Origin: Clostridia bacterium
Lineage (GTDB): Bacteria; Bacillota; Clostridia; Christensenellales; Maliibacteriaceae
Direction: 5' to 3'
DNA length: 64,000 bases
Assembly (NCBI GenBank): GCA_017431145.1
Contig: JAFRLQ010000053.1
Coordinates: 59,710-123,709 of the forward strand
Each line of letters begins with the position of its first letter. Positions within the stretch are counted from its first letter, which is position 1. This document shows, piece by piece, positions 18,086 to 40,786 of this stretch. The notes beneath the pieces were generated by a model, which did not search any database, had not been told where the DNA came from, and saw only the letters and a program-made list of their open reading frames with translations. Position numbers and translations under genes: made by a program.

Positions 18086-19761
18086 TTCGCTGCATTAGCC
18101 TCCTTGTTCTTGTTTCTTTTGAATATACCGGTGATCTTGTCGATCAGTCCGGAAAGTTTTCCCGTTCCCGCGATCCGCCGCAGTGCGCCGGTGCGGTATG
18201 TCAGAACCAGATAGATCCCCACCGTCACGATTCCCGCCGCAAGAAGCAGCAGCATCACAATGATTTTGCTCGTCATCTCCCCGCGGAACAGCGCGAACCG
18301 CAGGCCGACCATAAGCAGAATGGACAGGATTAGCGGACCGTAATATCTTTTCATGAAGATGAACACATCTTTATACCGGAATCCGTAGCTCTTCTTCATG
18401 CTCGTCAGAATGATCGCCGTGGAAGTCGTTGCCCCGATGATCGAAGCCAGCACGGAGCCGATATAGCAAGGCGCGCCGATCGTATTCAGCAGCAGGATCA
18501 GCGGAATGTCAAGCCCCGCGTTGACGGTGATGCCGATCAGCGTGTTGGCGAACAGGACCTTGTACTTGCGCATGCCCTGCAGCATCATATTCAGCACCAG
18601 CTGAATGGAAAACGCGATGCTCAGGATCGCCTGCACCATAAGGACCGTCGCGCCGTACTGCGACGGGCCGTAAAAGAAGAAGTAGACCGGCTTGGCGAAC
18701 ACGATGATGAACGCCGCCATGGGGAATCCGATATAGAAAAGCGTGTTGATCACGTAATTGACCTTCTCATTGATCCCGTTATATTCCTTATGGGTAAAAT
18801 CCGTCACGACAAAGGGGATCACGCTGGCGCACATCCCGATGCCGATCGCGTTGATCACCATGCAGATCTTGGAAGACCAGGTGATGACCACGCTGGCGAT
18901 CAGTTCGCTCTGGGCACCCGAGAAGCCCACGAGCTTCATGCCTTCCAGAACAAGTTTCAGGTCCACCATCTGGTAAACGTCCTGCGACGCTGAGATCAGA
19001 ATGACCGGCAGCGCGTAGAGCAGGATCCTTTTTGCGATCTTCTGCCAGGGGATCGTCGGCGGATAATCCGTATCCTTTTTCAGGTCCTTCCTGCTGGCAA
19101 ACGCACGCGCCTTGAGAAAGAGCAGCGCCACAAGTCCGCCCAGTACCGTTCCAGCCAGGGCAACCGATACGCCGATGTCTGTTCTGCCGCTCAGCACGTT
19201 GATCACGATATAGGATCCGACGAGCGCCACAAAGATCCGTACCAACTGCTCGATCACCTGGGAGATCGAGGACGGGTTGATGTACTTGTTCCCCTGAAGA
19301 TAACCGCGCGTGACGCTCAGAAACGGGATGACCAGCAGGCAGAACGAGATCACGCGGATGACCATGACCACGCTCCGGAAATCGCTTCCGCCTGTGATGT
19401 CTCCGATATAGAACCGTGTGATGAGCGGCGCGAACGAGAACATCAGAATGAACATCACCAGACCGATGAGTCCGATCAGACGGTTGGCGACGCGGTTCGC
19501 AAGTTCGCGTTCCGAAAACATGTTGAGCGCATTGTACTCCGCAACGATCAGGGAGACCGCCGTGGGGATGCCGCTTGTGGAAACATTCAGGAACAGATTG
19601 TAGACGTTATAAGCATATCCGTAGAGGACGCCGCCCTGTTCCCCGATGATCTTGTAAAACGGAATGACGTATACGGCGCCAAGCACCTTTGTCAGTATGA
19701 TCGCGATATAGGCGATCACGGTGCCTTCCACGAATGTGTTCTTTTTCATTTTTCTTGCCAT
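18082..19761 (-). CDS. MOP-superfamily flippase (MurJ/SpoVB/polysaccharide biosynthesis protein type)
   Basis: 559 aa with about 14 hydrophobic helices. 4-nt overlap with the downstream murT-like gene. Confidence 0.75.
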   Translation of the reverse strand: MARKMKKNTFVEGTVIAYIAIILTKVLGAVYVIPFYKIIGEQGGVLYGYAYNVYNLFLNVSTSGIPTAVSLIVAEYNALNMFSERELANRVANRLIGLIGLVMFILMFSFAPLITRFYIGDITGGSDFRSVVMVIRVISFCLLVIPFLSVTRGYLQGNKYINPSSISQVIEQLVRIFVALVGSYIVINVLSGRTDIGVSVALAGTVLGGLVALLFLKARAFASRKDLKKDTDYPPTIPWQKIAKRILLYALPVILISASQDVYQMVDLKLVLEGMKLVGFSGAQSELIASVVITWSSKICMVINAIGIGMCASVIPFVVTDFTHKEYNGINEKVNYVINTLFYIGFPMAAFIIVFAKPVYFFFYGPSQYGATVLMVQAILSIAFSIQLVLNMMLQGMRKYKVLFANTLIGITVNAGLDIPLILLLNTIGAPCYIGSVLASIIGATTSTAIILTSMKKSYGFRYKDVFIFMKRYYGPLILSILLMVGLRFALFRGEMTSKIIVMLLLLAAGIVTVGIYLVLTYRTGALRRIAGTGKLSGLIDKITGIFKRNKNKEANAAK

Positions 19762-19865
19762 AGATTCCGCCGTTTCACTCCTGCAGTATATTCATCATAG
19801 CATGGCGTACAGTTCCTGTACCCATCCTTTCGTATGGTTTCTTCCCTCTTCTCCGGACTTTCCGT

Positions 19866-20858
19866 TCACTCCGGTTCCGCAGCAGCCCGCGCCTGCTCCA
19901 GTTTTTCCAGATACGCGCCGCGCACATTTTCCGGGGAAAGGATCCTCACTTTTCCTGAGAACCCAAACACCCAGTTGTAGAAGGTCTGCCCCGTCGCGAC
20001 ATCCGCCTCCACATCGAACCATTCTTCGTCGATCACCTCGGTGCGGACACGCTCACCGAAGCGGTCGATCACAGCATCCATCGTCGATACATGGCACCGG
20101 AGCGTGACCGTCTCCACTTCCGTATTCATCATCCGGAAATGCGTCTGCAGATACCGGTCCAGATTGAAGTCCTTCGGTCTCGGCTCTGCTTTTTCATCAA
20201 GGAGCTCGGGCTGGTGCGCGATCCGGTCGACCCGGAAACTCGCAATGCCGCCGTGTTTGTCGGAATAGCCCAGCGCGTAGTAGAAATCTCCGTTCCAGAC
20301 CATCGCGTACGGACTGAACACATACCATTCTCCGCCATGCCGCAGCTGTTTCTTCTTGTGTATATCATAATAGAAATACTGGAACCGGATTTTTCTGCGT
20401 TTCTGGATCGCTTCATGGATCCTGTCTGCGATATAATAAACGGATTCGTTGCTCCCGCGGATCCTTCCCTCGGGATTGTTGAACCGTTTCAGTTCCTCGG
20501 ATGTATATCTGCTGGCAAGAGACGCCAGTTTGTCTGTCAGTTCACGGCTCTTTTTCGCCGTAATGAACTTTGAGGATTCCACAGCGTCGATCAGCAGTTT
20601 CAGTTCCGGAATCTGAAAGATCCTCGTCACCAGCCGGTATCTGTTCTGTGTCGAATGCGTCACGACAACGTCCGCTCCGAAGGCAATCAGCGTCTCGATA
20701 TCACGCGTGACCGTCGTCCTGTGGGCGTCGATCCCCCAGCGCTCCTTCAGAAGGCGCATGATCTGCGCCGTCGTAAGATAATGCTCCTCATCCGTCAGTT
20801 CCATCAGGAGTCTGTAAATGTAAAATATCCTGCTCTGATTCTCCGTCACCGATGACAT
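19866..20858 (-). CDS. HTH + WYL-domain transcriptional regulator (YafY/PafBC-like)
   Basis: The track ORF runs 19866-20951. I trimmed it to MSSVTENQSRIFYIYRLL at 20858 (start uncertain; 20894 is an alternative). N-terminal wHTH, a central WYL-like segment (IRFQYFYYD...YVFSPYAMVWNGDFYYALGY) and a C-terminal WCX-like part. Confidence 0.75.
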   Translation of the reverse strand: MSSVTENQSRIFYIYRLLMELTDEEHYLTTAQIMRLLKERWGIDAHRTTVTRDIETLIAFGADVVVTHSTQNRYRLVTRIFQIPELKLLIDAVESSKFITAKKSRELTDKLASLASRYTSEELKRFNNPEGRIRGSNESVYYIADRIHEAIQKRRKIRFQYFYYDIHKKKQLRHGGEWYVFSPYAMVWNGDFYYALGYSDKHGGIASFRVDRIAHQPELLDEKAEPRPKDFNLDRYLQTHFRMMNTEVETVTLRCHVSTMDAVIDRFGERVRTEVIDEEWFDVEADVATGQTFYNWVFGFSGKVRILSPENVRGAYLEKLEQARAAAEPE

Positions 20859-29921: not shown

Positions 29922-31496
29922 TTATTTGGCGTAGTCGACTGCTCTCGTCTCCCGTATGACATTGACTTTGATCTGTCCGGGATAATCCAGTTCCTCTTCG
30001 ATCTTCTTTGCGATATCGCGGGCCAGTACGACAGAGCCGGCGTCATCGACCATCTCAGGCTTGATGACAATACGTATCTCACGTCCTGCCTGAATGGCGA
30101 ATGATTTATCTACGCCGCGGAAGGAATTCGCGATCTCTTCCAGTTTCTCCAGTCTGCGGATGTAGTTCTCCAGCGTCTCACGGCGCGCGCCTGGCCTTGC
30201 GGCTGAGATCGCGTCGGCTGCCTGAACGAGCACTGCCTCCACGGTCCTGGGCTCGACGTCGTTGTGATGCGCCTCGATCGCGTGAACGATCTGCGCATTC
30301 TCACGGTAACGCTTTGCAAGATCCGCACCGATCTGTGCGTGCGGTCCCTCGATCTCATGATCGACCGCTTTGCCCAGGTCATGCAGCAGTCCCGCGCGTT
30401 TCGCCAGCTGGACATCCGCGCCGAGTTCCGCTGCCATGATCCCCGCAAGATGCGATACCTCGATGGAGTGCTTCAGCACGTTCTGCCCGTAGCTTGTACG
30501 GAACTTCATCCGTCCCAGAAGTCTGATGACTTCATGATGCAGGCCGTGTACGCCTGTTTCGAATACTGCGGATTCTCCCGCTTCCTGGATCTGCGCGTCC
30601 ACTTCCTTGCGCGCCTTGTTGACCATTTCCTCGATGCTGGTAGGATGGATCCTTCCGTCCATGACCAGTCTCTCCAGCGCGATCCTTGCCACTTCTCTTC
30701 TGACCGGATCGAATCCGGACAGGATGACCGCCTCAGGCGTATCGTCGATGATCAGATCGACTCCGGTCGCCGTCTCCAGCGCACGGATGTTTCTTCCCTC
30801 ACGGCCGATGATCCGTCCCTTCATGTCATCATTGGGCAGCGATACAACGGATACGGTACTTTCTGACACGTGATCCGCCGCGCACTTCTGAATGGCGAGC
30901 GATACGATGTTTCTCGCTCTTTTATCTGCTTCTTCCTTGGCGCGGCTCTCGATATCCCGGATCATGATCGCTGCGTCGTGCTTGACATCGTTTTCGATGT
31001 TCTCAAGCAGCAGGGCTTTTGCCTCATCCACCGTCATGCCCGAGATCCTTTCCAGCTGTACAAGTTCCTGATTGTGGAGTTCCTCCACTTCAGCCTGCAT
31101 GCGCTGGATCTGCTTCTGCTGACGTGCGATCGCTTCTTCTTTGGAATCGAGCTGTCCGGACTTTTTGTCCAGGCTCTCTTCGCGCTGATTCAGCCTGCGC
31201 TCCTGCGCTTTCAGTTCGCTCCTGCGCTCGCGCGCCTCGCGTTCCTGTTCGCTGCGCAGACGATGCACATCTTCACGCGCTTCAAGGATACTCTCTTTCT
31301 TCATCGTTTCCGCCTGCTGACGGGCATTGTCAATGATCTTCCTTGCGTTTTCCTCTGCCGAGCCAGTCCGCTTTGCCGCGATACTCTGACGGATGCGGTA
31401 ACCCGCAATAATACCCACGATCAGAGCCGCTGCTCCGATCAGTGCGGCCATCCAGCCGGTGATCCCGCCGCCTGCAAGAACGATATGGGAAAGCAT
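29922..31496 (-). CDS. rny: Ribonuclease Y
   Basis: N-terminal TM helix, coiled-coil, a KH domain ([15 protein letters not shown]) and an HD domain ([13 protein letters not shown]...LLHDLGK). The track start at 31511 is a GTG inside the RBS. The ATG at 31496 or the TTG at 31502 is more likely. Confidence 0.9.
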
Positions 31497-31578
31497 CTGC
31501 AAATGTAACACCTCCTTCTTTCCTTTTTCTCCAAGTCGTTATTCATTTTTTCATCTGCCTAAACGTTTCCAATAAAAG

Positions 31579-31605
31579 AGGAATCGATGACTGAAACCGA
31601 TTCCT
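31579..31605 (-). terminator. Intrinsic terminator downstream of the 147-aa gene
   Basis: AGGAATCG-N11-CGATTCCT, followed on the minus strand by CTTTTATT. Confidence 0.6.
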
Positions 31606-31698
31606 TCTATATTTTTGCCGAGATACGAAGCGCAAATATGTATTCAAACGTTATAGCCATACATGGCTTAGTATAAAACATATGTACGTTTTGTCAAG

Positions 31699-32142
31699 TC
31701 ATGCTTCCTCCGGAGCCCAGGATTTCTGCAGTTCCTCGATGATCAGGAACCCGTCAGTTTTCACTGCGATCTGATACTGATCCTCATACACGATCTCGCC
31801 CGGCGAATTGGTGTAGACGAGATAATACGGATGATTGTATTTTTCCAGCAGCCAGAGCGCCGGACGGATCATCTTCATCATCTCTTCCGTGTTCTCTGTC
31901 TTGAACCAGCAGATGACAGGCTCCCTGCGCATGCACGGCTCGGGCCATGGAAGATGCTCCGCGAACCATCCGTCAATCTCTTTGAACAGTTCCGCGTCTT
32001 CCTCCTCCATCACATCATTCTGGACCATCTGCCAGCACATACTGAAAACACCCTTGGCATACATCGTGTTTTCCGCCAGTTCTTTCCCCTGTATCCGCGC
32101 ATATTTATACCTTGAGTTCATCCCCGGAATCCTCCCGTTCAT
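31699..32142 (-). CDS. Hypothetical cytoplasmic protein
   Basis: 147 aa with no recognisable family. Its ATG overlaps the stop of the upstream surface-protein gene (ATGA at 32139-32142). An alternative ATG at residue 8 has a GGGAGG RBS. Confidence 0.55.
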   Translation of the reverse strand: MNGRIPGMNSRYKYARIQGKELAENTMYAKGVFSMCWQMVQNDVMEEEDAELFKEIDGWFAEHLPWPEPCMRREPVICWFKTENTEEMMKMIRPALWLLEKYNHPYYLVYTNSPGEIVYEDQYQIAVKTDGFLIIEELQKSWAPEEA

Positions 32143-34055
32143 GCTGCTTTCTTCCTGCGTATCAGTATCAGGGCACAGCCCGCTGCCGCAGCTGCGATCA
32201 CCGCCGCAGCTCCGCCGCAGATCAGATAAAGCGGCATCCTGTAGCCCTTGACGGCAATATGCACCGTGCTTGCCGGCGTTTCCACAGCAGAGGGTCTGAA
32301 TACCGTTTCCGCTTTGATGAAAGAGCCGTATCCGGGCACTGCGAAGACATTCACTTCCCCTTTGCGGGGAACAGTGATCTGTGCCTTTTCAGCCAGGATA
32401 AAGCATGAAGGCGCGTACTGTGGAATATATGCCACAGCTGCTTCCACGGTTTCTCCCGTATCCGCCGCCAGCGCGATGCCGTTTTTCGCTTCTGACTTCA
32501 CGAAGCACTTCCGATCGGTCAGCGTGATATTCGCTGTTCCGAACAGGATTCCGTACGCCGTTCCTTCCTTGCCTGCACGCACTCTGGATTCCAGAACTGC
32601 GTCTGTAACGTTGAGTTCGCGTCCCACTGTCATGCCAAACGCTTCCGTCATTCCCCTGACGTCGAGTTTTGCTTTGCAGCCTTCCTCGAGCATAAAGAGT
32701 CCGCCGATCTGTACCGCGACCGTGTTCGCCGTTTTCGGCCCGTAGATTTTTACCTTCAGCACGCTTCCATTCATCAGGTCGACGGAATTTCCCGTCTCCC
32801 CTCCGAAGACACCGATCAGATTCCCCGTATACTCCTTCCTCGCGGGTCTGGCGGAAAGTTCGACATTGATGACTGCATTGTCCGCATTGATCGAACCCAG
32901 TCCGTTCAGCGAGATCCCGCTCAGCATGGCGATATACTGGTCTGTCGGAATGAAATTCTTCGGCACAGCCGTGCCTTTCACATTGAGCGTCGCGCCGTTG
33001 GCATAGATCGATCCCATAATGAACAGACTGTCCTTCACAGTCGGTCCCACAGAGACGCGTACGGGTTTTGAGTCTACATCCACGACGGCGCCGTCATACA
33101 TGCGCAGATCTCCGTCCGTATGGATCGCCGTTCCATGCGCGTTGATCGACGCGTGTGTTCCCTCATCGAAATACAGGGAATAGCATGTGATGCCGTCTGC
33201 GAAATCGTTCTTTCGCGGCCGGCCGGTAAAGTCAGACATAAACTCGATGTTCGCATCTGTATAGATATAGTTGCTTCCGCCTTTGATCACCAGCGGATCG
33301 CCGTCAAAAACGAGATTCGGATGATTCCCCTCACCTTTTGTTCCGAAGAACGCGTTGAACGTCACACCGCCGGAGTGGTAATCCGCGTCATAGTAGTTAT
33401 TGGTAATGACGCATTTCCCTTTCATGTGGAAATAGTACTCCAGATCCTCGCTGTTCCTGCGCATCAGAAACACACACAGGGCTGCTGATGTGCGGGGATC
33501 ACATACGAACCTGCCGTTGCTGAGCCTGACATTTTCAAACGTTATGTTCACGCCGTCGGGATCGAAGTACACCTTTCCTTTTCCAAGGCCTGCTCCCTTC
33601 AGATCAAGCTCGTCACCCGGCGTAAGCGCAAACTCGCCGATATAAAGGACCGTGATGTCCTCCGTCTTGTTCTTGTTGGTCAGTGTCGCCTCTTCCGTCG
33701 TCAGGACATTTCCCTTCCTGTCTTCCATGACACACCAGTATGTCAGCACTTCCTGTGAATCCTGTTCAATGGAAGGCACGATCAGCGTTTCCGTGTGCGC
33801 ACTGGAACCCTGAAGTTCAAAAATGTTGTATCCGTCTGAGAAATACCACTGATAGGATTTGATCTTCCCCGGCTTGTCCACTTCCACATGGAATTCCGCG
33901 CCGTTGGGGTAATTGACCTCCACACTCTGGGGCTGTGAAATGATCACGGGCGGCGCGTATGCCGCCGACGCCTTCTGCGGGATCAGGACCGCGCACACGA
34001 CCAGAAGCAGGATCCCGATTCCGAGGACCGCCATCTTTTTCAGTTCTCGTTTCAT
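32139..34055 (-). CDS. Secreted, C-terminally membrane-anchored surface protein with an N-terminal Ig-like domain and a probable beta-helix region
   Basis: 638 aa. Signal peptide MKRELKKMAVLGIGILLLVVCAVLIPQKASA. Ig-like module (PPVIISQPQSV...YQWYF...LTYWCVMED). C-terminal TM helix followed by RRKKAA. Confidence 0.7.
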   Translation of the reverse strand: MKRELKKMAVLGIGILLLVVCAVLIPQKASAAYAPPVIISQPQSVEVNYPNGAEFHVEVDKPGKIKSYQWYFSDGYNIFELQGSSAHTETLIVPSIEQDSQEVLTYWCVMEDRKGNVLTTEEATLTNKNKTEDITVLYIGEFALTPGDELDLKGAGLGKGKVYFDPDGVNITFENVRLSNGRFVCDPRTSAALCVFLMRRNSEDLEYYFHMKGKCVITNNYYDADYHSGGVTFNAFFGTKGEGNHPNLVFDGDPLVIKGGSNYIYTDANIEFMSDFTGRPRKNDFADGITCYSLYFDEGTHASINAHGTAIHTDGDLRMYDGAVVDVDSKPVRVSVGPTVKDSLFIMGSIYANGATLNVKGTAVPKNFIPTDQYIAMLSGISLNGLGSINADNAVINVELSARPARKEYTGNLIGVFGGETGNSVDLMNGSVLKVKIYGPKTANTVAVQIGGLFMLEEGCKAKLDVRGMTEAFGMTVGRELNVTDAVLESRVRAGKEGTAYGILFGTANITLTDRKCFVKSEAKNGIALAADTGETVEAAVAYIPQYAPSCFILAEKAQITVPRKGEVNVFAVPGYGSFIKAETVFRPSAVETPASTVHIAVKGYRMPLYLICGGAAAVIAAAAAGCALILIRRKKAA

Positions 34056-34086
34056 GCCTTTTCTCCTCCGCTGCTTTTTAATAAAA

Positions 34087-34110
34087 ACGCCCCGGCGTTT
34101 CCCGGGGCGT
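34087..34110 (-). terminator. Intrinsic terminator ending the STAS/MATE operon
   Basis: ACGCCCCGG-cgtttc-CCGGGGCGT, followed on the minus strand by TTTTTATT. Confidence 0.8.
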
Positions 34111-34119
34111 ATTTGGTTG

Positions 34120-35892
34120 TCAGACTTTGATCGTCAGAACATTCAGTCCGAGTATGTTCTGATACTGTATGTCCTCCGCCATCTTGAAGATCATGCGCAA
34201 TCCGATATTCTTTGTCACATCATCCGGATCGGCGATCTTCTGCCGTTCTCTGGGATCAAACGGCACGCAGTCGTCCTTCAGTCTCAGGATGAGGTCATTG
34301 TCTTTATGGACGACACGCACGTCAACAGAATGCTTCTTTTTGTCTTTCGTGAATCCGTGGTCGACGATATTGCCTGCCATTTCCTCCATCGCAAGACCTG
34401 CAAGATAGGACCTGTGTGCGTCGATCCCCTTCTCTTCGCAGAAAGCCTGGACCCGCTGCGAGATCGTTACGACATCCTCGATGCTTTTGATACTCAGGTC
34501 CATACGCTCATCGTCTGTCACACCGAAATCATCCGGTATGACCATAAGATCGTCCATGCTGCGCGGAAAATGTTTTTTGCGGATCAGTGCGTAGATGACG
34601 CAGATCAGGATGCATCCCACGCCGTTGAGGATATTGGCGATATATACGCTGTTCATCTTCAGAGCCGGGATCAGCAGCGCAGTGAAACCTGCAACAAACA
34701 CCGCCCCGTCGAACAGGGACAGGATATTGACGAGCACGTCCTTTCCGGAAGCCTGTCCGTAGTTGATGAAATGGATCGCGATGGTGCTCAGCGGCATACA
34801 GACCGGGATAAGCCGGAGGCCCCACACCGTCATCATGTAGACCGGATCCGCAGGATCCCGGTAGAAGATCCGTGTGAGCGGCACGGCGAAAATGATGAGC
34901 AATGCTGAAACCGCGCACATCAGCGGCACATAGCGCGTGAACATCACGCGCATGATATCTGCCAGCGTCCTCCTGTCTTCCTCGCCGACGCTGACGGACA
35001 TCAGCATACGGGAAACAGCCTGCATACCGAACGGGATCGCCCAGAATATCCTGAGCAGACTGTCCACCGCGGCAAACGCGGACAGCGCAACGCTCCCCAC
35101 ATAAGCAAGAAGCAGCGCGTTCACGATCAGTCCGCGGATCGTCTCATAGACTCTGGCGCTCGCCGCAGGGAAGCCGATGCGCAGGATCGCTCCGCTTTCC
35201 TTCCATGCAAGGCCTTTCATGCTGAATCTAAGATGCGATTTCTTGGAAAAGAAGTAAGGCGCCTGTACCAGAAAGAACGCCCAGAGCCCGATGGAGGAGG
35301 CCAGCGCCAGGCCGAAGATCTCCATTTTCAGCACAAGAACGAACAGGAAATTCAGAACGATATTCAGAAAGATGTAGACGCCGATCGCGACGAGCGTCCG
35401 GTTGCCTTTGTTCTCCATCGACAGAAATGCCTGCAGCTGGTTGCCCACCACGAGCGGGAACACGCCGATCGACATGCCCAGAAGATACTGATTGAACAGC
35501 GGCCGCAGCACTGGATCCTTGGCGAGAAAACCGGTCAGATCGAACGCACCGAAGATTACGAACAGAACTGTAAAAACGATCCCGATAATCGCTGAGATCA
35601 CCAGACTCAGCGAGAACACGTTGCGCATTTTCTCCTGCTGATTCTGCCCCATGTATTTCCCGCACAGGATCACGGAACCGCCGACCATCGTCATGTTGAT
35701 CGCCGTGATCAGCATATTGATGGGCCCGTACAATCCGATCGCGCTCATGGAATCGACGCTGATAAAGTTGCTGGCATAAAAACTGGAAACGATCCCGTTT
35801 ACCGCCGTCACTGCCGACAGCAGGATCTGGATCGGCAGAAGTTTCATCATCAGTTTTGCAATCATTTTGGTGTTGGCTGCCTGTTTTTCCAT
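34120..35892 (-). CDS. MATE-family efflux transporter fused to a C-terminal GHKL (SpoIIAB/RsbW-like anti-sigma) ATPase-fold domain
   Basis: 590 aa. About 450 aa form a 12-TM MATE-like core. The last 135 aa or so carry an N-box (EEMAGNIVDHG), a G1-like DDCVPFDP and a degenerate G2 (NIGLRMIF). Confidence 0.8.
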   Translation of the reverse strand: MEKQAANTKMIAKLMMKLLPIQILLSAVTAVNGIVSSFYASNFISVDSMSAIGLYGPINMLITAINMTMVGGSVILCGKYMGQNQQEKMRNVFSLSLVISAIIGIVFTVLFVIFGAFDLTGFLAKDPVLRPLFNQYLLGMSIGVFPLVVGNQLQAFLSMENKGNRTLVAIGVYIFLNIVLNFLFVLVLKMEIFGLALASSIGLWAFFLVQAPYFFSKKSHLRFSMKGLAWKESGAILRIGFPAASARVYETIRGLIVNALLLAYVGSVALSAFAAVDSLLRIFWAIPFGMQAVSRMLMSVSVGEEDRRTLADIMRVMFTRYVPLMCAVSALLIIFAVPLTRIFYRDPADPVYMMTVWGLRLIPVCMPLSTIAIHFINYGQASGKDVLVNILSLFDGAVFVAGFTALLIPALKMNSVYIANILNGVGCILICVIYALIRKKHFPRSMDDLMVIPDDFGVTDDERMDLSIKSIEDVVTISQRVQAFCEEKGIDAHRSYLAGLAMEEMAGNIVDHGFTKDKKKHSVDVRVVHKDNDLILRLKDDCVPFDPRERQKIADPDDVTKNIGLRMIFKMAEDIQYQNILGLNVLTIKV

Positions 35893-35907
35893 TGCAACTT
35901 CCCTCTT

Positions 35908-36696
35908 TCAATCGATCAGCCCGAAATGCCGCAGCGCATTTCCGATGCCGTCTTCATCCACTGTATCCGTTACGTAATCCGCAGCCGCCTTGACAGTGTC
36001 ACCTGCGTTTCCCATCGCAACACCGATCCCGGCAAACTGCAGCATTTCGATATCGTTTTCTCCGTCTCCGAATGCCATGATCTGGGAACGTTCCAGCCCG
36101 TTCTCGTCAAGGTATTTCTGAATGCCTGAGGCTTTTCCGCCGCCCCGTGGAATGATGTCGATACCCGTCTCAGCCCAGCTGGAAATAGAACATTCATCCA
36201 GAAGATCGTTCAGTATCTGCTTTTCATGCTCCGGGATAAATGCCAGGATCTGGTAGACGTTCTCCCCCTCATAGGTACCGATCTGCGGGATCGTGCCCAT
36301 CGTTTCCGCCTGTGTCTTCACAACGGTATCGTTGACGTAATTGATGTAGCGGTCGTTCTCCCCGATCAGCACGAACGGAATGCGTTTCGCACGGAATATC
36401 TGTTCCAGAACTTCCATTTCGCCTTTGTCGATCGCGGTCCCCGCATACACTTTCCTGTTTCCGTCCAGAAGCAGCTGCCCGTTCAGCGTCAGGTATCCGT
36501 CGAACTCGATCTCGCTGACCGGCAGTTTGGAGTATTCCTGCATATGTCTGCCCGTCGCAATGACCGTTTTGATCCCTTTTTCGCGCAGCCTCCGGAGCGC
36601 TACGCGCGTTTCCTGCGGCACGTCGTTCAGTTTATGTGACAGAAGCGTTCCGTCGACATCGAAAAACACCGCCCTGATATCATGTTCTCCGCTCAC
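35908..36696 (-). CDS. Cof-type HAD-IIB phosphatase
   Basis: HAD motif I FFDVDGTLL and motif IV GDGENDIEM. The track start (TTG at 36720) was trimmed to the GTG at 36696, which has an AGGAGG RBS 7 nt upstream. Confidence 0.8.
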   Translation of the reverse strand: MSGEHDIRAVFFDVDGTLLSHKLNDVPQETRVALRRLREKGIKTVIATGRHMQEYSKLPVSEIEFDGYLTLNGQLLLDGNRKVYAGTAIDKGEMEVLEQIFRAKRIPFVLIGENDRYINYVNDTVVKTQAETMGTIPQIGTYEGENVYQILAFIPEHEKQILNDLLDECSISSWAETGIDIIPRGGGKASGIQKYLDENGLERSQIMAFGDGENDIEMLQFAGIGVAMGNAGDTVKAAADYVTDTVDEDGIGNALRHFGLID

Positions 36697-37561
36697 TGTT
36701 GTACCTCCTGACCTTCTCAAAAAAACGCTTCATGCCCGCAGGCCCCTGTTCCGCATCCTCGAGATTCGTATCTCCGAGTTCGATCAGTTTGTTTTTGCCG
36801 TGGTAATCGCTTCCCGCCGTGACGTACAGCCCGTTCTTTTCCGCCAGTGTCAGAAGGCTCTCCGTCAGTCTTTTCGGGAAACCGGAATAGAACGCCTCAA
36901 GTCCCTGAAGTCCGAACCCCATGAGCCGTGAAACGCGCTCCTCCATCTCCTCTCCAATGATAAGCTGGTCTCCGCTCCCGTATGAGGGATGCGCCAGGAC
37001 CGGAATACCGCCCGACGCGAGGATCCCCTCGATCGCTTCTTCCGGCCGTACATACTCGCTTTTGAAATGGATCTTGTTGATGTAATCCAGGATCGCCTCT
37101 TCCTTGGTCTTCACATAGCCGTATTTCACCATCAGATTTCCGATGTGCGGCTTCCCGGGATTGTCCAGTGCGAAAAGCGCGTCCTTGTCCTCCTGTGAAA
37201 ACACGAATCCGAATTCCTTCTCGACAAAATCCACCCGCGCGCGCACCTTGTTCATGCGGTAGCTGTGTCCCAGATCCACGATCCGCTGCACACCTTCCGA
37301 TTGCGGCTCGTACCCGTATCCCAGAATGTGGTACTTCCCATATTCATCCTTGCAGGAGAACTCGGCGCCGGTGATGAACTGAGGGTCTTCGGGCTTCAGA
37401 ATATCCAGAACGATCCTGCAGCCTTTGACCGCATCGTGGTCCGTGACCGCGAAAAGACCGATCCCCGCGTCTTTTACGCGCAAAAGGATTTCCTCCGGCG
37501 TATCCGTGCCGTCGGAAACCCTTGTATGCATATGCAGATCGATCTTCTTAGGAATAACCAT
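36680..37561 (-). CDS. PHP-domain metal-dependent phosphoesterase
   Basis: 293 aa. IDLHMHTRVSDG, FAVTDHD, VLAHP and GSDYHG, which are PHP motifs. Confidence 0.8.
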   Translation of the reverse strand: MVIPKKIDLHMHTRVSDGTDTPEEILLRVKDAGIGLFAVTDHDAVKGCRIVLDILKPEDPQFITGAEFSCKDEYGKYHILGYGYEPQSEGVQRIVDLGHSYRMNKVRARVDFVEKEFGFVFSQEDKDALFALDNPGKPHIGNLMVKYGYVKTKEEAILDYINKIHFKSEYVRPEEAIEGILASGGIPVLAHPSYGSGDQLIIGEEMEERVSRLMGFGLQGLEAFYSGFPKRLTESLLTLAEKNGLYVTAGSDYHGKNKLIELGDTNLEDAEQGPAGMKRFFEKVRRYNSERRT

Positions 37562-37591
37562 ACCGTGTCTCTTCGTACCGCGACACTGCGG

Positions 37592-39169
37592 TCACAGATT
37601 CTTTTTCAGTTTCAGTATGTTTCTCCCGTCTTTGTATTCATAAACGATATCATCCATCGTTTTCTTTGCCAGGAATATGCCCAGTCCGCCGATCCTGCGT
37701 TCCTCCGCAGAGAGTGTCACATCGGGTTCCTCCGATGCCAGCGGATCATACGGGACCCCCTGATCCATGAACGTGATGGTGACAGTGACAGGCGCTTCGG
37801 ACACTTCCATCAGAACCGTCGCGTTTCCGTGTTCCGGTGCGTAGGCATAGTTCGCGATATTCACGAAGATCTCCTCCGCTGCGACAGCGATCTGCATGCG
37901 GGCTCTCGGAGGGCAGTCGGTATCCTCAAGATTCCTGTCGATGAAATCCAGCACTTCCTGCAGATTCTCCACGTCCGCACCGATCTCCAGCTCATTGCGG
38001 GCAAACAGCAGCGTATCCGTCTTTTCCAGCAGTTCCAGAAGCTCGCCCTTCCACAGTTCGATCTCCGCTCTGCCTTCAGGCGTCTCCATACCTTTCCTGC
38101 GGATCGATCTTCTGATCATGCGCGCATACCCGATGATCCTCGCCTTGTCTTCCACTTCGCGGATCCTGTACTCGTTCTGCGTTCCCAGATAAGCTGCCAG
38201 TGCTTTGTGCCAGAACTGTTTTCCGATGTCCAGCGTAAAGCCCTGGAAACGTTCGATCGCCGTATTGTCATACTCGGAGTATCCGATAAAGGAATTATAC
38301 ATGGACGCCAGTTCAAAGATCGGATGCCCGACCGCCAGCGTATCCATATCGATCAGCAGCGTCTCGTCGTTCTGAAGCATGACGTTTTTCGTATGGTAAT
38401 CACCATGGATCATATGATCGTCATGCGGCACTTCCTCGACCAGTCTGATCAGTTTTTCGCCTGCGTCCTCCGGCAGATAATCCTTCATGAAGCGCACCCA
38501 ATTGAGCGCCGTCTCCTTCATGTCCGGTAGTTTTCCTTCCGGGACCAGCGTGCTGTGGATCTTCTTCAGCATTCCGATATACTCTTCCACGCACCAGTCC
38601 ATCTTTTCGGGCTCCGTCTCCAGTATCTTCGAAAAGGAGCGGGCATTCAGAAATTCGAAAACCGATCCGTAACTGTCATTGACACGCACCACATCATAAG
38701 AGATCGCCGTCGGGATCCCGAGGACCAGCGCAAGACGCGCCACTTCCCTCTCATGCTGGATGTCCGCCAGCGCGTCCGCATTATTGTAGACCTTGATGAC
38801 ATTGTCCTGGTCGATCCTGTAGATCGTCCCGTTCGCACCGCGTCCGACTTCCTCGCATCCCTCCACGGAAACGACTCTGTACGCCTTTTCCACCTTCATC
38901 ATCTGCGTGAACCCAGTCATGTCGAGAATCTCGTAAACATCCGAGTTGACATTGATGATCCGAAGATCGGGATTCGTCTTTTTCAGACGCAGAAGGACAC
39001 GCAGGCCGGCGCTGGAAATGTATTCCAGCTCCTCCATATCAAGCACGACCGGCACTCCGGTTTTTCCATCCAGAACGGACTGTATATGCGCTTCCGCGTC
39101 TGCCGCATTGCGGGAATCGATCCTCCCTTTCAGATCGACTGTAACAGCCCCGTTGGTCAAGTCAGCCAT
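37592..39169 (-). CDS. Three-domain signalling protein: STAS + APH/ChoK-like protein-kinase-fold phosphotransferase + GHKL (anti-sigma-type) ATPase domain
   Basis: 525 aa. STAS motif LEYISSAGLRVLL (residues 48-60). Kinase motifs GRGANGTIY, VIKVY, HGDYHTKN (255-262) and LIDMD (272-276). GHKL motifs EEIFVNIANY, DQGVPYDP and GGLGIFL (494-500). Confidence 0.8.
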   Translation of the reverse strand: MADLTNGAVTVDLKGRIDSRNAADAEAHIQSVLDGKTGVPVVLDMEELEYISSAGLRVLLRLKKTNPDLRIINVNSDVYEILDMTGFTQMMKVEKAYRVVSVEGCEEVGRGANGTIYRIDQDNVIKVYNNADALADIQHEREVARLALVLGIPTAISYDVVRVNDSYGSVFEFLNARSFSKILETEPEKMDWCVEEYIGMLKKIHSTLVPEGKLPDMKETALNWVRFMKDYLPEDAGEKLIRLVEEVPHDDHMIHGDYHTKNVMLQNDETLLIDMDTLAVGHPIFELASMYNSFIGYSEYDNTAIERFQGFTLDIGKQFWHKALAAYLGTQNEYRIREVEDKARIIGYARMIRRSIRRKGMETPEGRAEIELWKGELLELLEKTDTLLFARNELEIGADVENLQEVLDFIDRNLEDTDCPPRARMQIAVAAEEIFVNIANYAYAPEHGNATVLMEVSEAPVTVTITFMDQGVPYDPLASEEPDVTLSAEERRIGGLGIFLAKKTMDDIVYEYKDGRNILKLKKNL

Positions 39170-39209
39170 TTTGTCCTCCTTTGTATTGCAGACAGATTCT
39201 CATACGCCC

Positions 39210-39512
39210 TTATTCGATCGTCAGAATCTCCGCGAAACCGGTCAGCTCAAAGATCTCCGCGATCGTATCGTTCAGATTCCGAACCTTCATTTCGCCTTTT
39301 TCCTTGTTCATGATCTTCTGCGTCGCAAGCAGCACACGCAGTCCGGCGGAAGAGATATAATCCAGTTTCTCAAAATCCAGAGTCAGATCTTTCACGCCTT
39401 CCAAAGAGTTCATCAGATCCTCTTCCAGAACAGGGGCTGTGATGGTATCCAGTCTCCCTTCCAGTGCGAACAAAGCTTTTCCCTCTTCGATTGTCTTGTT
39501 GATATTCAGCAT
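39210..39512 (-). CDS. STAS-domain protein (anti-sigma-factor-antagonist type)
   Basis: 100 aa. DYISSAGLRVLL with the conserved Ser-Ser. The 11 residues YISSAGLRVLL are identical to those in the STAS domain of the next gene. Confidence 0.85.
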   Translation of the reverse strand: MLNINKTIEEGKALFALEGRLDTITAPVLEEDLMNSLEGVKDLTLDFEKLDYISSAGLRVLLATQKIMNKEKGEMKVRNLNDTIAEIFELTGFAEILTIE

Positions 39513-39696
39513 TCCGTTATACTCCTTTTTCTGCTGTTATTCTGATACGGACAGTTTCCTGCCTTAAAAAAAGTAAAACCACGCTCTTATCCACCTATAA
39601 TACAGGTGAGCATTCTTATGTATATTTTCTATCCTCAGCACGCCCTGTGTCAAGTCTTTCATACGTGCTTGACATATGCCGAAAAGAAAAACCGAA

Positions 39697-39728
39697 AGCT
39701 CCGGGCGGTATCCGCCGCTCCGGAGCTC
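39697..39728 (-). terminator. Intrinsic terminator downstream of recA
   Basis: AGCTCCGG-GCGG-tatc-CGCC-g-CTCCGGAGCT hairpin. The minus-strand reading is followed by GGTTTTTCTTTT. Confidence 0.75.
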
Positions 39729-39757
39729 CTGCTGTATATCTTGTTTTCCGTAAATGC

Positions 39758-40786
39758 TCAGTCCTCGTCCATTCCCGGCGCACCGGAGAGGATCTGCCGG
39801 ATCTTCTCCTCCACTTCCGCGGCGACGTCCGGATTGTCCGCGAGGTACTGCTTGGCATTCTCTCTTCCCTGTCCGATCCTTTCACCCATATAGGAATACC
39901 ATGAACCGCTTTTCACGATCACACCGTGTTCTGCGCCGAGGTCGATCAGAGAACCGGTCCTGGAGACGCCGCGTCCGTAGATGATATCAAATTCAGCGAC
40001 CTTGAACGGCGGCGCAAGTTTGTTTTTCACGACCTTGATGCGCGTGCGGTTGCCGACCAGTTCGCCTCCGACCTTGATCGTATCGATGCGCCGCACGTCC
40101 AGACGGATGCTGGCATAGAATTTCAGCGCACGTCCGCCGGCAGTCGTTTCGGGGTTGCCGAACATTACGCCGATCTTTTCACGCAGTTGGTTGATGAAGA
40201 TCACGATGGTCTTGGACTTCGACACCGTGCCCGAGAGTTTTCTCAGCGCCTGGGACATCAGTCTTGCCTGCAATCCGACATGGGAATCGCCCATGTCCCC
40301 CTCCAGCTCCGCCTTGGGAACCAGCGCTGCCACCGAGTCGATGACAATCAGATCGATCGCTCCGCTGCGCGCCAGCGCATCCGCGATATCCAGCGCCTGT
40401 TCGCCGCTGTCCGGCTGGGAAACATACATCTCGTTCACGTCCACACCCAGGTTTCCGGCATAGACGGGATCCAGCGCGTGTTCTGCGTCGATGAACGCCG
40501 CGATGCCGCCCGCTTTCTGTGTTTCCGCCACCGCATGCAGCGCGATCGTCGTTTTACCGGAAGACTCAGGTCCGTAGATCTCGATCACGCGTCCACGGGG
40601 GAATCCGCCGATCCCCAGCGCCAGATCCAGTTCCAGACATCCGGTCGGGATGACGGAAACGTTCATGTTCGCCGTGTTCTCTCCCAGTCTCATGATCGAG
40701 CCTTTTCCGAACTGTTTCTCGATCTGTGCCAATGCAACGTCCAGTGCGTGCTGTTTTTCCGCAGGCAGTCTGTCATTCTTGTCCAT
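39758..40786 (-). CDS. recA: Recombinase RecA
   Basis: Walker [10 protein letters not shown] and a RecA-like sequence throughout. The track start at 40801 was trimmed to MDKNDRL at 40786, which has a GAGGGAG RBS. Confidence 0.95.

Follow-up and report, generated by a model that had tools for sequence, protein, structure and literature searches.

Partner switching is known chiefly for controlling sigma factors, and its other outputs amount to a few soluble enzymes. Its classical GHKL proteins, SpoIIAB and RsbW, are encoded together with serine-bearing STAS proteins (SpoIIAA, RsbV) and PP2C phosphatases (SpoIIE, RsbU). Several partner-switching-like systems lack a sigma factor as output: in Anabaena HenR with its STAS-glycosyltransferase (PMC13555669), Pseudomonas aeruginosa SiaABCD (PMC8457831) and Vibrio SypE/SypA (PMC10120452), a STAS protein is phosphorylated by a GHKL-type or related kinase, dephosphorylated by a PP2C enzyme, and has an enzyme, not a sigma factor, under its control. 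The output in these cases is soluble, and none of them has a GHKL domain fused to a transporter. STAS domains are also coupled to transport through a cytoplasmic domain, as in the SLC26/SulP transporters with their C-terminal STAS domain and in the MlaFEDB ABC transporter with its STAS protein MlaB (PMC7367683). Here we describe a gene from a Clostridia bacterium (GenBank assembly GCA_017431145.1, contig JAFRLQ010000053.1, positions 59,710 to 123,709), lying in a stretch of 64,000 nucleotides that we call the window, in which this last arrangement is turned around: whereas the SLC26/SulP and MlaFEDB transporters carry or bind STAS, here a transporter of the MATE/MOP type carries the partner of STAS, a GHKL domain of the SpoIIAB/RsbW kind. 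This altered SpoIIAB-like domain on a MATE tail suggests a route, so far unstudied, by which a transporter could be tied into a phospho-switch circuit, and on balance we favor the reading that the tail serves as a port through which the transporter joins a STAS/PP2C/GHKL partner-switching circuit. To our knowledge, next to nothing has been described about how bacterial MATE transporters are controlled after translation. A full-text literature search turned up no account or test of a MATE-HATPase_c_2 fusion, and the combination is already visible in automatic annotations.

Our reference protein is the 590-aa open reading frame (ORF) that contains the stretch singled out in an earlier note on this DNA (34123-34530, minus strand; residues 455-590). 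Its parts, with transmembrane helices abbreviated TM and AlphaFold2 abbreviated AF2, are as follows:

34120..35892, minus strand: the MATE-GHKL fusion gene, 590 aa (ORF call, Pfam MatE plus HATPase_c_2, AF2 model)
34573..35892, minus strand: MATE core, residues 1-440, with 12 TM helices, DinF/PfMATE-like (PDB profile matches, Foldseek, Asp395)
34483..34572, minus strand: linker, residues 441-470, LMVIPxDFG...R.D, conserved, joining TM12 to the GHKL domain
34123..34482, minus strand: HATPase_c_2 domain (SpoIIAB/RsbW-type GHKL), residues 471-590 (Pfam, domain model, Foldseek)

Both halves of the protein are recognized by Pfam. The MatE profile (PF01554) matches in two stretches with 77.8 bits against a cut-off of 24.9, and HATPase_c_2 (PF13581) matches residues 472-587 with 42.3 bits (E 9.4e-11), above its curated cut-off of 27.4. 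Among the NCBIfam models, RsbW and RsbA give weak, sub-threshold matches on the tail, and the matE subfamily model TIGR00797 reaches 113 bits, short of its cut-off of 147.4; the core is a divergent member of the MATE family. Single-sequence and profile searches of the PDB with the tail returned no significant match (best E about 0.1), and its fold therefore had to be assigned from AF2 models compared by Foldseek. The whole-protein model (pLDDT 82, pTM 0.75, from a 32-sequence alignment) consists of twelve long helices followed by a beta-alpha-alpha-beta-beta-(lid)-alpha-beta-beta domain, and the tail modeled by itself (pLDDT 82.4, from a 56-sequence alignment) has the alpha/beta Bergerat fold. 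Its best PDB matches are SpoIIAB (1TID, TM 0.69/0.72, and 1TH8), RsbW (6M37, TMt 0.77, E 3e-7), Mycobacterium tuberculosis UsfX (8IH8), LvrC (9QIH) and SiaB (6KKO); when the full-length model was submitted to Foldseek, all matches were to MATE, MurJ and Wzx structures. The tail is thus a SpoIIAB/RsbW-type GHKL domain, as the earlier note had proposed from the letters alone when it described an anti-sigma-like GHKL domain following a 12-TM MATE core.

The closest of these structures, SpoIIAB, RsbW and UsfX, belong to anti-sigma factors, and the genome holds seven sigma-70-family genes, including ones with products of 262 and 288 aa. Both facts would suit a tail that is a true anti-sigma factor, holding a sigma factor at the membrane and freeing it when STAS binds. 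We nevertheless consider this very improbable, since no sigma factor (sigma70_r2) gene was found on the window's contig and, in a sample of 80 related loci taken with flanks of up to 10 kb, the four nearest genes on each side of MATE-GHKL include no recurrent family of sigma-factor size. The sigma target that SpoIIAB and RsbW have is therefore not linked to the fusion, and UsfX (which works with RsfA and RsfB) differs from the tail in being a soluble, sigma-binding protein, whereas the tail belongs to a membrane transporter.

Profile searches match the core best to 3VVN, 6FHZ and 4LZ6 (PfMATE, DinF-BH and related MATE/MOP transporters), and Foldseek gives TMt values of 0.75-0.80 against PfMATE, with 0.80 for its structure 6FHZ. 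The 12-TM fold is the same as in these proteins, to which MATE-GHKL adds about 150 C-terminal residues. Of the acids that might couple transport to cations, Asp395 in TM11 is the only invariant one embedded in the membrane, and Glu191 is present in 28 of 32 sequences. Because the helices number twelve, both termini lie on one side of the membrane; the loops on the face that the termini share carry 24 lysines and arginines, against 6 on the opposite face. The positive-inside rule and the homology to solved MATE structures accordingly place the GHKL tail in the cytoplasm, and this check, run on the 12-helix model, bears out what had been expected of the MATE termini. Two findings had been named beforehand as fatal to the idea, the lack of a HATPase_c_2 profile match and a tail outside the cell, and neither was seen. 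The linker that enters the tail from TM12 is itself conserved, with a mean identity of 68% to the window protein and seven residues (P443, M450, P453, F456, G457, R463 and D465) that are invariant in one of our two alignments (A1).

An assembly or frameshift artifact, or a chance fusion, can be ruled out: the same architecture, with the same motifs, is found in 1093 clusters at 90% identity, collected by a word-indexed search restricted to the tail, and relatives are encoded in 410 species genomes, mostly those of rumen and gut Oscillospiraceae, Lachnospiraceae, Erysipelotrichaceae and other Clostridia. The best 120 of the 1093 clusters all have both PF13581 and PF01554, nearly all measure 580-610 aa (a few are shorter or longer), and their tails are 70-77% identical to the window protein's; they go by source names such as 'ATP-binding protein', 'MATE family efflux transporter [Butyrivibrio proteoclasticus]' and 'Na+-driven multidrug efflux pump/anti-sigma regulatory factor'. 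With the tail as query, an exhaustive phmmer search reached 2374 clusters (50% identity) at E<=1e-3 and 904 at E<=1e-10, and in the best 150 of these clusters the domain is always C-terminal and the complete proteins measure about 565-665 aa, most of them 580-610. Conservation is higher in the tail than in the transporter core, both as identity to the window protein (73% versus 58%) and as pairwise identity (75% versus 64%), and the tail is under strong purifying selection. Some genomes have two MATE-GHKL paralogues (L044, G210, G226 and G342); in L044, where one copy occupies 18941-20725 on the minus strand, the two lie ~9 kb apart on opposite strands.

Conservation of the tail extends to a nucleotide pocket that differs from the canonical one at defined places:

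34354..34386, minus strand: N-box EEMAGNIVDHG (Glu503/504, Asn508, His512), intact and invariant
34252..34278, minus strand: G1 region KDDCVPFDP, where Asp540 is retained and an invariant cysteine, Cys542, stands in for the G1 glycine
34192..34209, minus strand: G2 region NIGLRM, with one of three glycines kept (Gly564) and Arg566 invariant

The N-box is as expected of a HATPase_c_2 domain, its invariant positions being E503, E504, N508, H512, G513 and F514. The family's DxG motif at G1 is broken, the tail having DDC where RsbW has DEG and the 525-aa protein encoded upstream in the same operon has DQG; Cys542 is invariant in both alignments (A1 and A2), and cysteine is still the usual residue in members at 40% identity. 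Nor is GGLG or SGMG found at G2, where the tail reads KNIG(I/L)RM and Gly564 is the sole glycine kept. In an alignment with RsbW (PDB 6M36), DEG falls opposite DDC and GGLGLYLM opposite (K)NIGIRLV. The lid between G1 and G2, measured on the alignments, spans 24 residues in the tail, 28 in the 525-aa neighbor and 32 in RsbW, and is thus 4-8 residues shorter. The consensus of 14 canonical GHKL domains from clusters of the same kind, 'D.G.PyDP...eR.iGGLGiF', stands against 'DDCvPFDP...kNIGIRM' for 56 MATE tails, so that the lid arginine of the co-encoded canonical kinases is also lost. This pattern persists in family members just 40% identical, and even at that distance no variation is seen in the Mg-binding Asn508, the N-box Glu503/504 or the adenine-contacting Asp540. 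The likeness between the tail and the GHKL domain of the 525-aa neighbor, to which the earlier note had drawn attention, amounts to 27% identity over 99 residues (E 6e-7), with all of the motifs it quoted present; the neighbor's counterparts are EEIFVN, DQGVPYDP and GGLGIF. That note was also right that the G2 glycines depart from the neighbor's GGLGIF, and it overlooked the replacement of the G1 glycine. The family is in this respect a natural experiment on how much a GHKL domain can shed, here glycines of G1 and G2 along with part of the lid, and still remain under strong selection. Besides Cys542 in the nucleotide pocket (window 34276-34269), the tail has a second invariant cysteine in helix 1, Cys485 (FC485); judging from these residues, a thiol or redox role for the two is conceivable.

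The fusion gene is the last of five co-directional, tightly spaced genes that share one promoter-like site and one terminator:

39624..39653, minus strand: promoter-like site TTGACA-18-GAAAAT upstream of the STAS gene, a consensus match only
39210..39512, minus strand: stand-alone STAS protein of the anti-sigma-antagonist type, 100 aa, with the YISSAGL serine motif
37592..39169, minus strand: 525-aa protein made of STAS, an APH-type kinase and a canonical HATPase_c_2 domain (STAS-APH-GHKL; Pfam/NCBIfam, APH part TIGR02172-like)
36680..37561, minus strand: PHP-domain phosphoesterase, TrpH/pAp-phosphatase-like (below equivalog cut-offs), found upstream of MATE-GHKL at 10 of the 80 loci
35908..36720, minus strand: Cof-type HAD-IIB phosphatase, an operon member here and at 1 of the 80 related loci
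34087..34110, minus strand: strong terminator-like hairpin (9 pairs, 8 of them G-C, and a T-run) that closes the operon

In the 525-aa protein, the STAS motif YISSAGL stands at residue 50, and the APH domain keeps its catalytic loop (HGDYHTKN at residue 255 and IDMD at 273). Its C-terminal GHKL domain matches PF13581 with 74.6 bits and has the intact DQGVPYDP and GGLGIF motifs, as expected of the canonical kinase in a partner-switching system. YISSAGL, with its conserved phosphorylatable serine, is present in both STAS domains of the operon and in all 41 STAS domains of the related clusters, which all retain the EYISSAGLRVLL serine motif; this is the position of the serine phosphorylated in SpoIIAA and RsbV. 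The 2.38-Mb assembly has two HATPase_c_2 and two STAS domains in all, and every one of them lies in this operon. The operon contains no PP2C/SpoIIE phosphatase; the genome encodes three or four at other places. The HAD phosphatase can be ruled out as a core component, given its single occurrence among the 80 loci. As listed, its ORF shares 41 nt with the end of the PHP gene (36680-36720), and its true start may be an internal codon.

A similar set of genes accompanies the fusion in relatives. Profile hidden Markov models were built iteratively from the 80 loci themselves, a procedure that very divergent STAS or PP2C genes could escape, and a locus was counted as informative if it had at least 5 kb of sequence on the relevant side. 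STAS genes occur upstream and on the same strand at 19 of 57 informative loci and downstream at 0 of 54; across all 80 loci, PP2C genes are found at 21, STAS-APH genes at 18, and any of STAS, PP2C or a second GHKL at 28. The usual order is STAS, then a sensor-HAMP-PP2C gene (sometimes fused to a canonical GHKL, 711-716 aa), STAS-APH with or without GHKL, PHP, and finally MATE-GHKL. At L007 and L017 a 98-aa STAS gene ends 9-17 bp ahead of the MATE-GHKL start, at L006 and L032 the fusion is preceded by three or four STAS genes, a PP2C gene and a 140-aa GHKL, and at L081 the same gene set is reordered with MATE-GHKL first. The association with STAS is strong and directional. It is not universal, and the question of whether such fusions always neighbor STAS genes must be answered in the negative, the share being about one third. 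Neighboring ABC/C39 exporter genes (14 loci) and a 334-aa lipoprotein gene (10 loci) have no fixed position or strand, and were set aside as generic.

The association also holds at the level of whole genomes. Among 301 genomes of the order, MATE-GHKL is present in 13, full-length STAS-APH in 14 and both in 8, for a Fisher odds ratio of 75 (p = 2.3e-9) by a statistic that ignores phylogeny; several of the co-occurring genomes have the two genes on different contigs. In the 13 carriers the tail always lies within an ORF of at least about 590 aa, save for one 399-aa ORF at a contig end. These patterns bear on a reading in which the tail has no STAS partner and is instead an ATP/ADP-sensing or dimerizing domain that gates the pump by energy state, its association with STAS reflecting shared regulation only. 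The retained nucleotide-contacting Asn and Asp would fit such a sensor, as would the two thirds of loci that have no STAS gene nearby and the fact that SpoIIAB and RsbW (PDB 1TH8, 6M36) are dimers. We find it improbable, however, for the STAS genes lie solely upstream and on the same strand, sometimes immediately adjacent, and the co-occurrence persists across different contigs.

STAS-APH, with its TIGR02172-type kinase, is a family in its own right (the 14 of 301 genomes above), with or without a C-terminal canonical GHKL; examples are at L013, L036, L041 and L050. Our literature search found no mention of TIGR02172. At these same four loci (L013:5873-8008 for the first), a membrane sensor-HAMP-PP2C protein of 711-716 aa with a C-terminal canonical HATPase_c_2 domain is encoded beside STAS-APH and MATE-GHKL. 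To judge from its domains, such a protein would put a STAS phosphatase and a STAS kinase on one polypeptide.

What the altered pocket does is the point on which the possible readings diverge most. The earlier note took the tail for a binding-only pseudokinase retained as a docking site for a STAS protein. Its STAS half has gained support from the operon, the upstream genes of relatives and the genomic co-occurrence. Its binding-only half is not established, because Asn508, Glu503/504 and Asp540 are invariant and the tail is the sole GHKL domain of its type in a few genomes; with the Mg- and adenine-contacting residues and the N-box glutamates retained, the sequence does not permit the domain to be labeled nucleotide-blind or catalytically dead. 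All of the 50 genomes checked have at least two HATPase_c_2 matches. In G302 (locus L003), the MATE tail is the sole match above the cut-off and a PP2C gene overlaps the MATE-GHKL start; in G349 (L079), it is again the sole match above the cut-off and the only STAS domain lies inside a 684-aa ORF; and in G335 (L054), which has one STAS, it is the better of two above-cut-off matches, the other being a weaker 161-aa ORF. All three are metagenome-assembled genomes (MAGs), in which absences are soft. No HATPase_c_2 domain in these genomes scores better than the MATE-borne one, which, where it stands alone, would be the one candidate STAS kinase of this type. We would argue from their gene content that the tail is unlikely to be just a passive docking site in constant need of a separate canonical kinase.

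The same three genomes, with PP2C or STAS adjacent (L003) or elsewhere in the genome, could be taken a step further, to a tail that is an active serine kinase with the MATE core as its sensor. The transport cycle, or the occupancy of the core by substrate, would then act on the kinase through the TM12 linker, and by phosphorylating STAS the tail would report flux to STAS-APH or other targets. The invariance of Glu503/504, Asn508 and Asp540 down to 40% identity is in keeping with such a transceptor, as is the arrangement at L017, where PP2C, STAS and MATE-GHKL follow one another with no other GHKL within 10 kb. Yet the tail has lost the G1 glycine, two of the three G2 glycines and the lid arginine, its lid is shortened, and a canonical kinase domain is also present in most genomes, including this one. 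We therefore regard a transceptor as rather unlikely, though it is the most serious of the alternatives. For a GHKL module that only binds its STAS partner, UsfX is a precedent: it is reportedly (Beaucher et al. 2002) an anti-sigma factor of the GHKL type, controlled by STAS-type antagonists that it does not phosphorylate.

If, as we favor, the transporter joins a partner-switching circuit through this port, the physical binding of STAS, the direction of control and the effect on transport that we infer could take the following form. An unphosphorylated STAS domain, whether that of the 100-aa protein or the N-terminal one of STAS-APH-GHKL, would dock on the GHKL tail, which is probably nucleotide-bound at the time. 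Docking would change the action of the tail, by relieving or imposing a gate through the conserved TM12 linker or by recruiting the APH-type enzyme to the transporter. Placing a phosphate on the conserved STAS serine would fall to the canonical GHKL domain of the 525-aa protein, and removing it again to PP2C phosphatases, encoded elsewhere in this genome and within the cluster in relatives, so that the state of the transporter would be set by the phosphorylation state of STAS. A more specific version is possible but tentative: that this is the first recognized secondary transporter to be hard-wired into a partner-switching circuit, with a tail that gates or plugs the transporter in cis until unphosphorylated STAS competes for it, or that reports on transport.

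Several observations weigh against the port reading. At about two thirds of the informative loci, STAS, PP2C and GHKL genes are all missing from the flanking 10 kb. In G302, which carries the fusion, no STAS domain was detected genome-wide, this being a MAG of unknown completeness. The co-occurrence statistic, as said, takes no account of phylogeny. Finally, the lid, the region expected to contact STAS and nucleotide, is where AF2 confidence is lowest. Nevertheless, a conserved SpoIIAB-like domain on a MATE pump, amid clusters of STAS, PP2C and kinase genes, offers a testable model of signal-controlled efflux or of efflux-coupled signaling. If the more specific, hard-wired version is correct, MATE activity would be directly coupled to STAS phosphorylation in hundreds of gut and rumen Firmicutes.

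In this genome the operon lies within an accessory island:

31369..39797, strand not assigned: island of ~8.4 kb between rny and recA, containing orf147, an Ig-like 638-aa protein gene and the five-gene operon

Two genomes of the same genus (L090 and L091) have cinA, recA and rny in a row, with a gap of about 220 bp between recA and rny and no counterpart of the island, and three same-genus genomes are without the MATE-GHKL tail. Because these close relatives do without island and tail, the MATE-GHKL module is accessory and patchily distributed. No integrase or transposase was seen within 31369-39797. Apart from the operon, the island contains orf147, a 147-aa ORF, and, directly downstream of the operon terminator, the gene for the 638-aa protein (32139-34055, minus strand). 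No Pfam or NCBIfam family matches this protein above threshold; it has a signal peptide, a weak Ig_3 match and a C-terminal hydrophobic anchor followed by RRKK.

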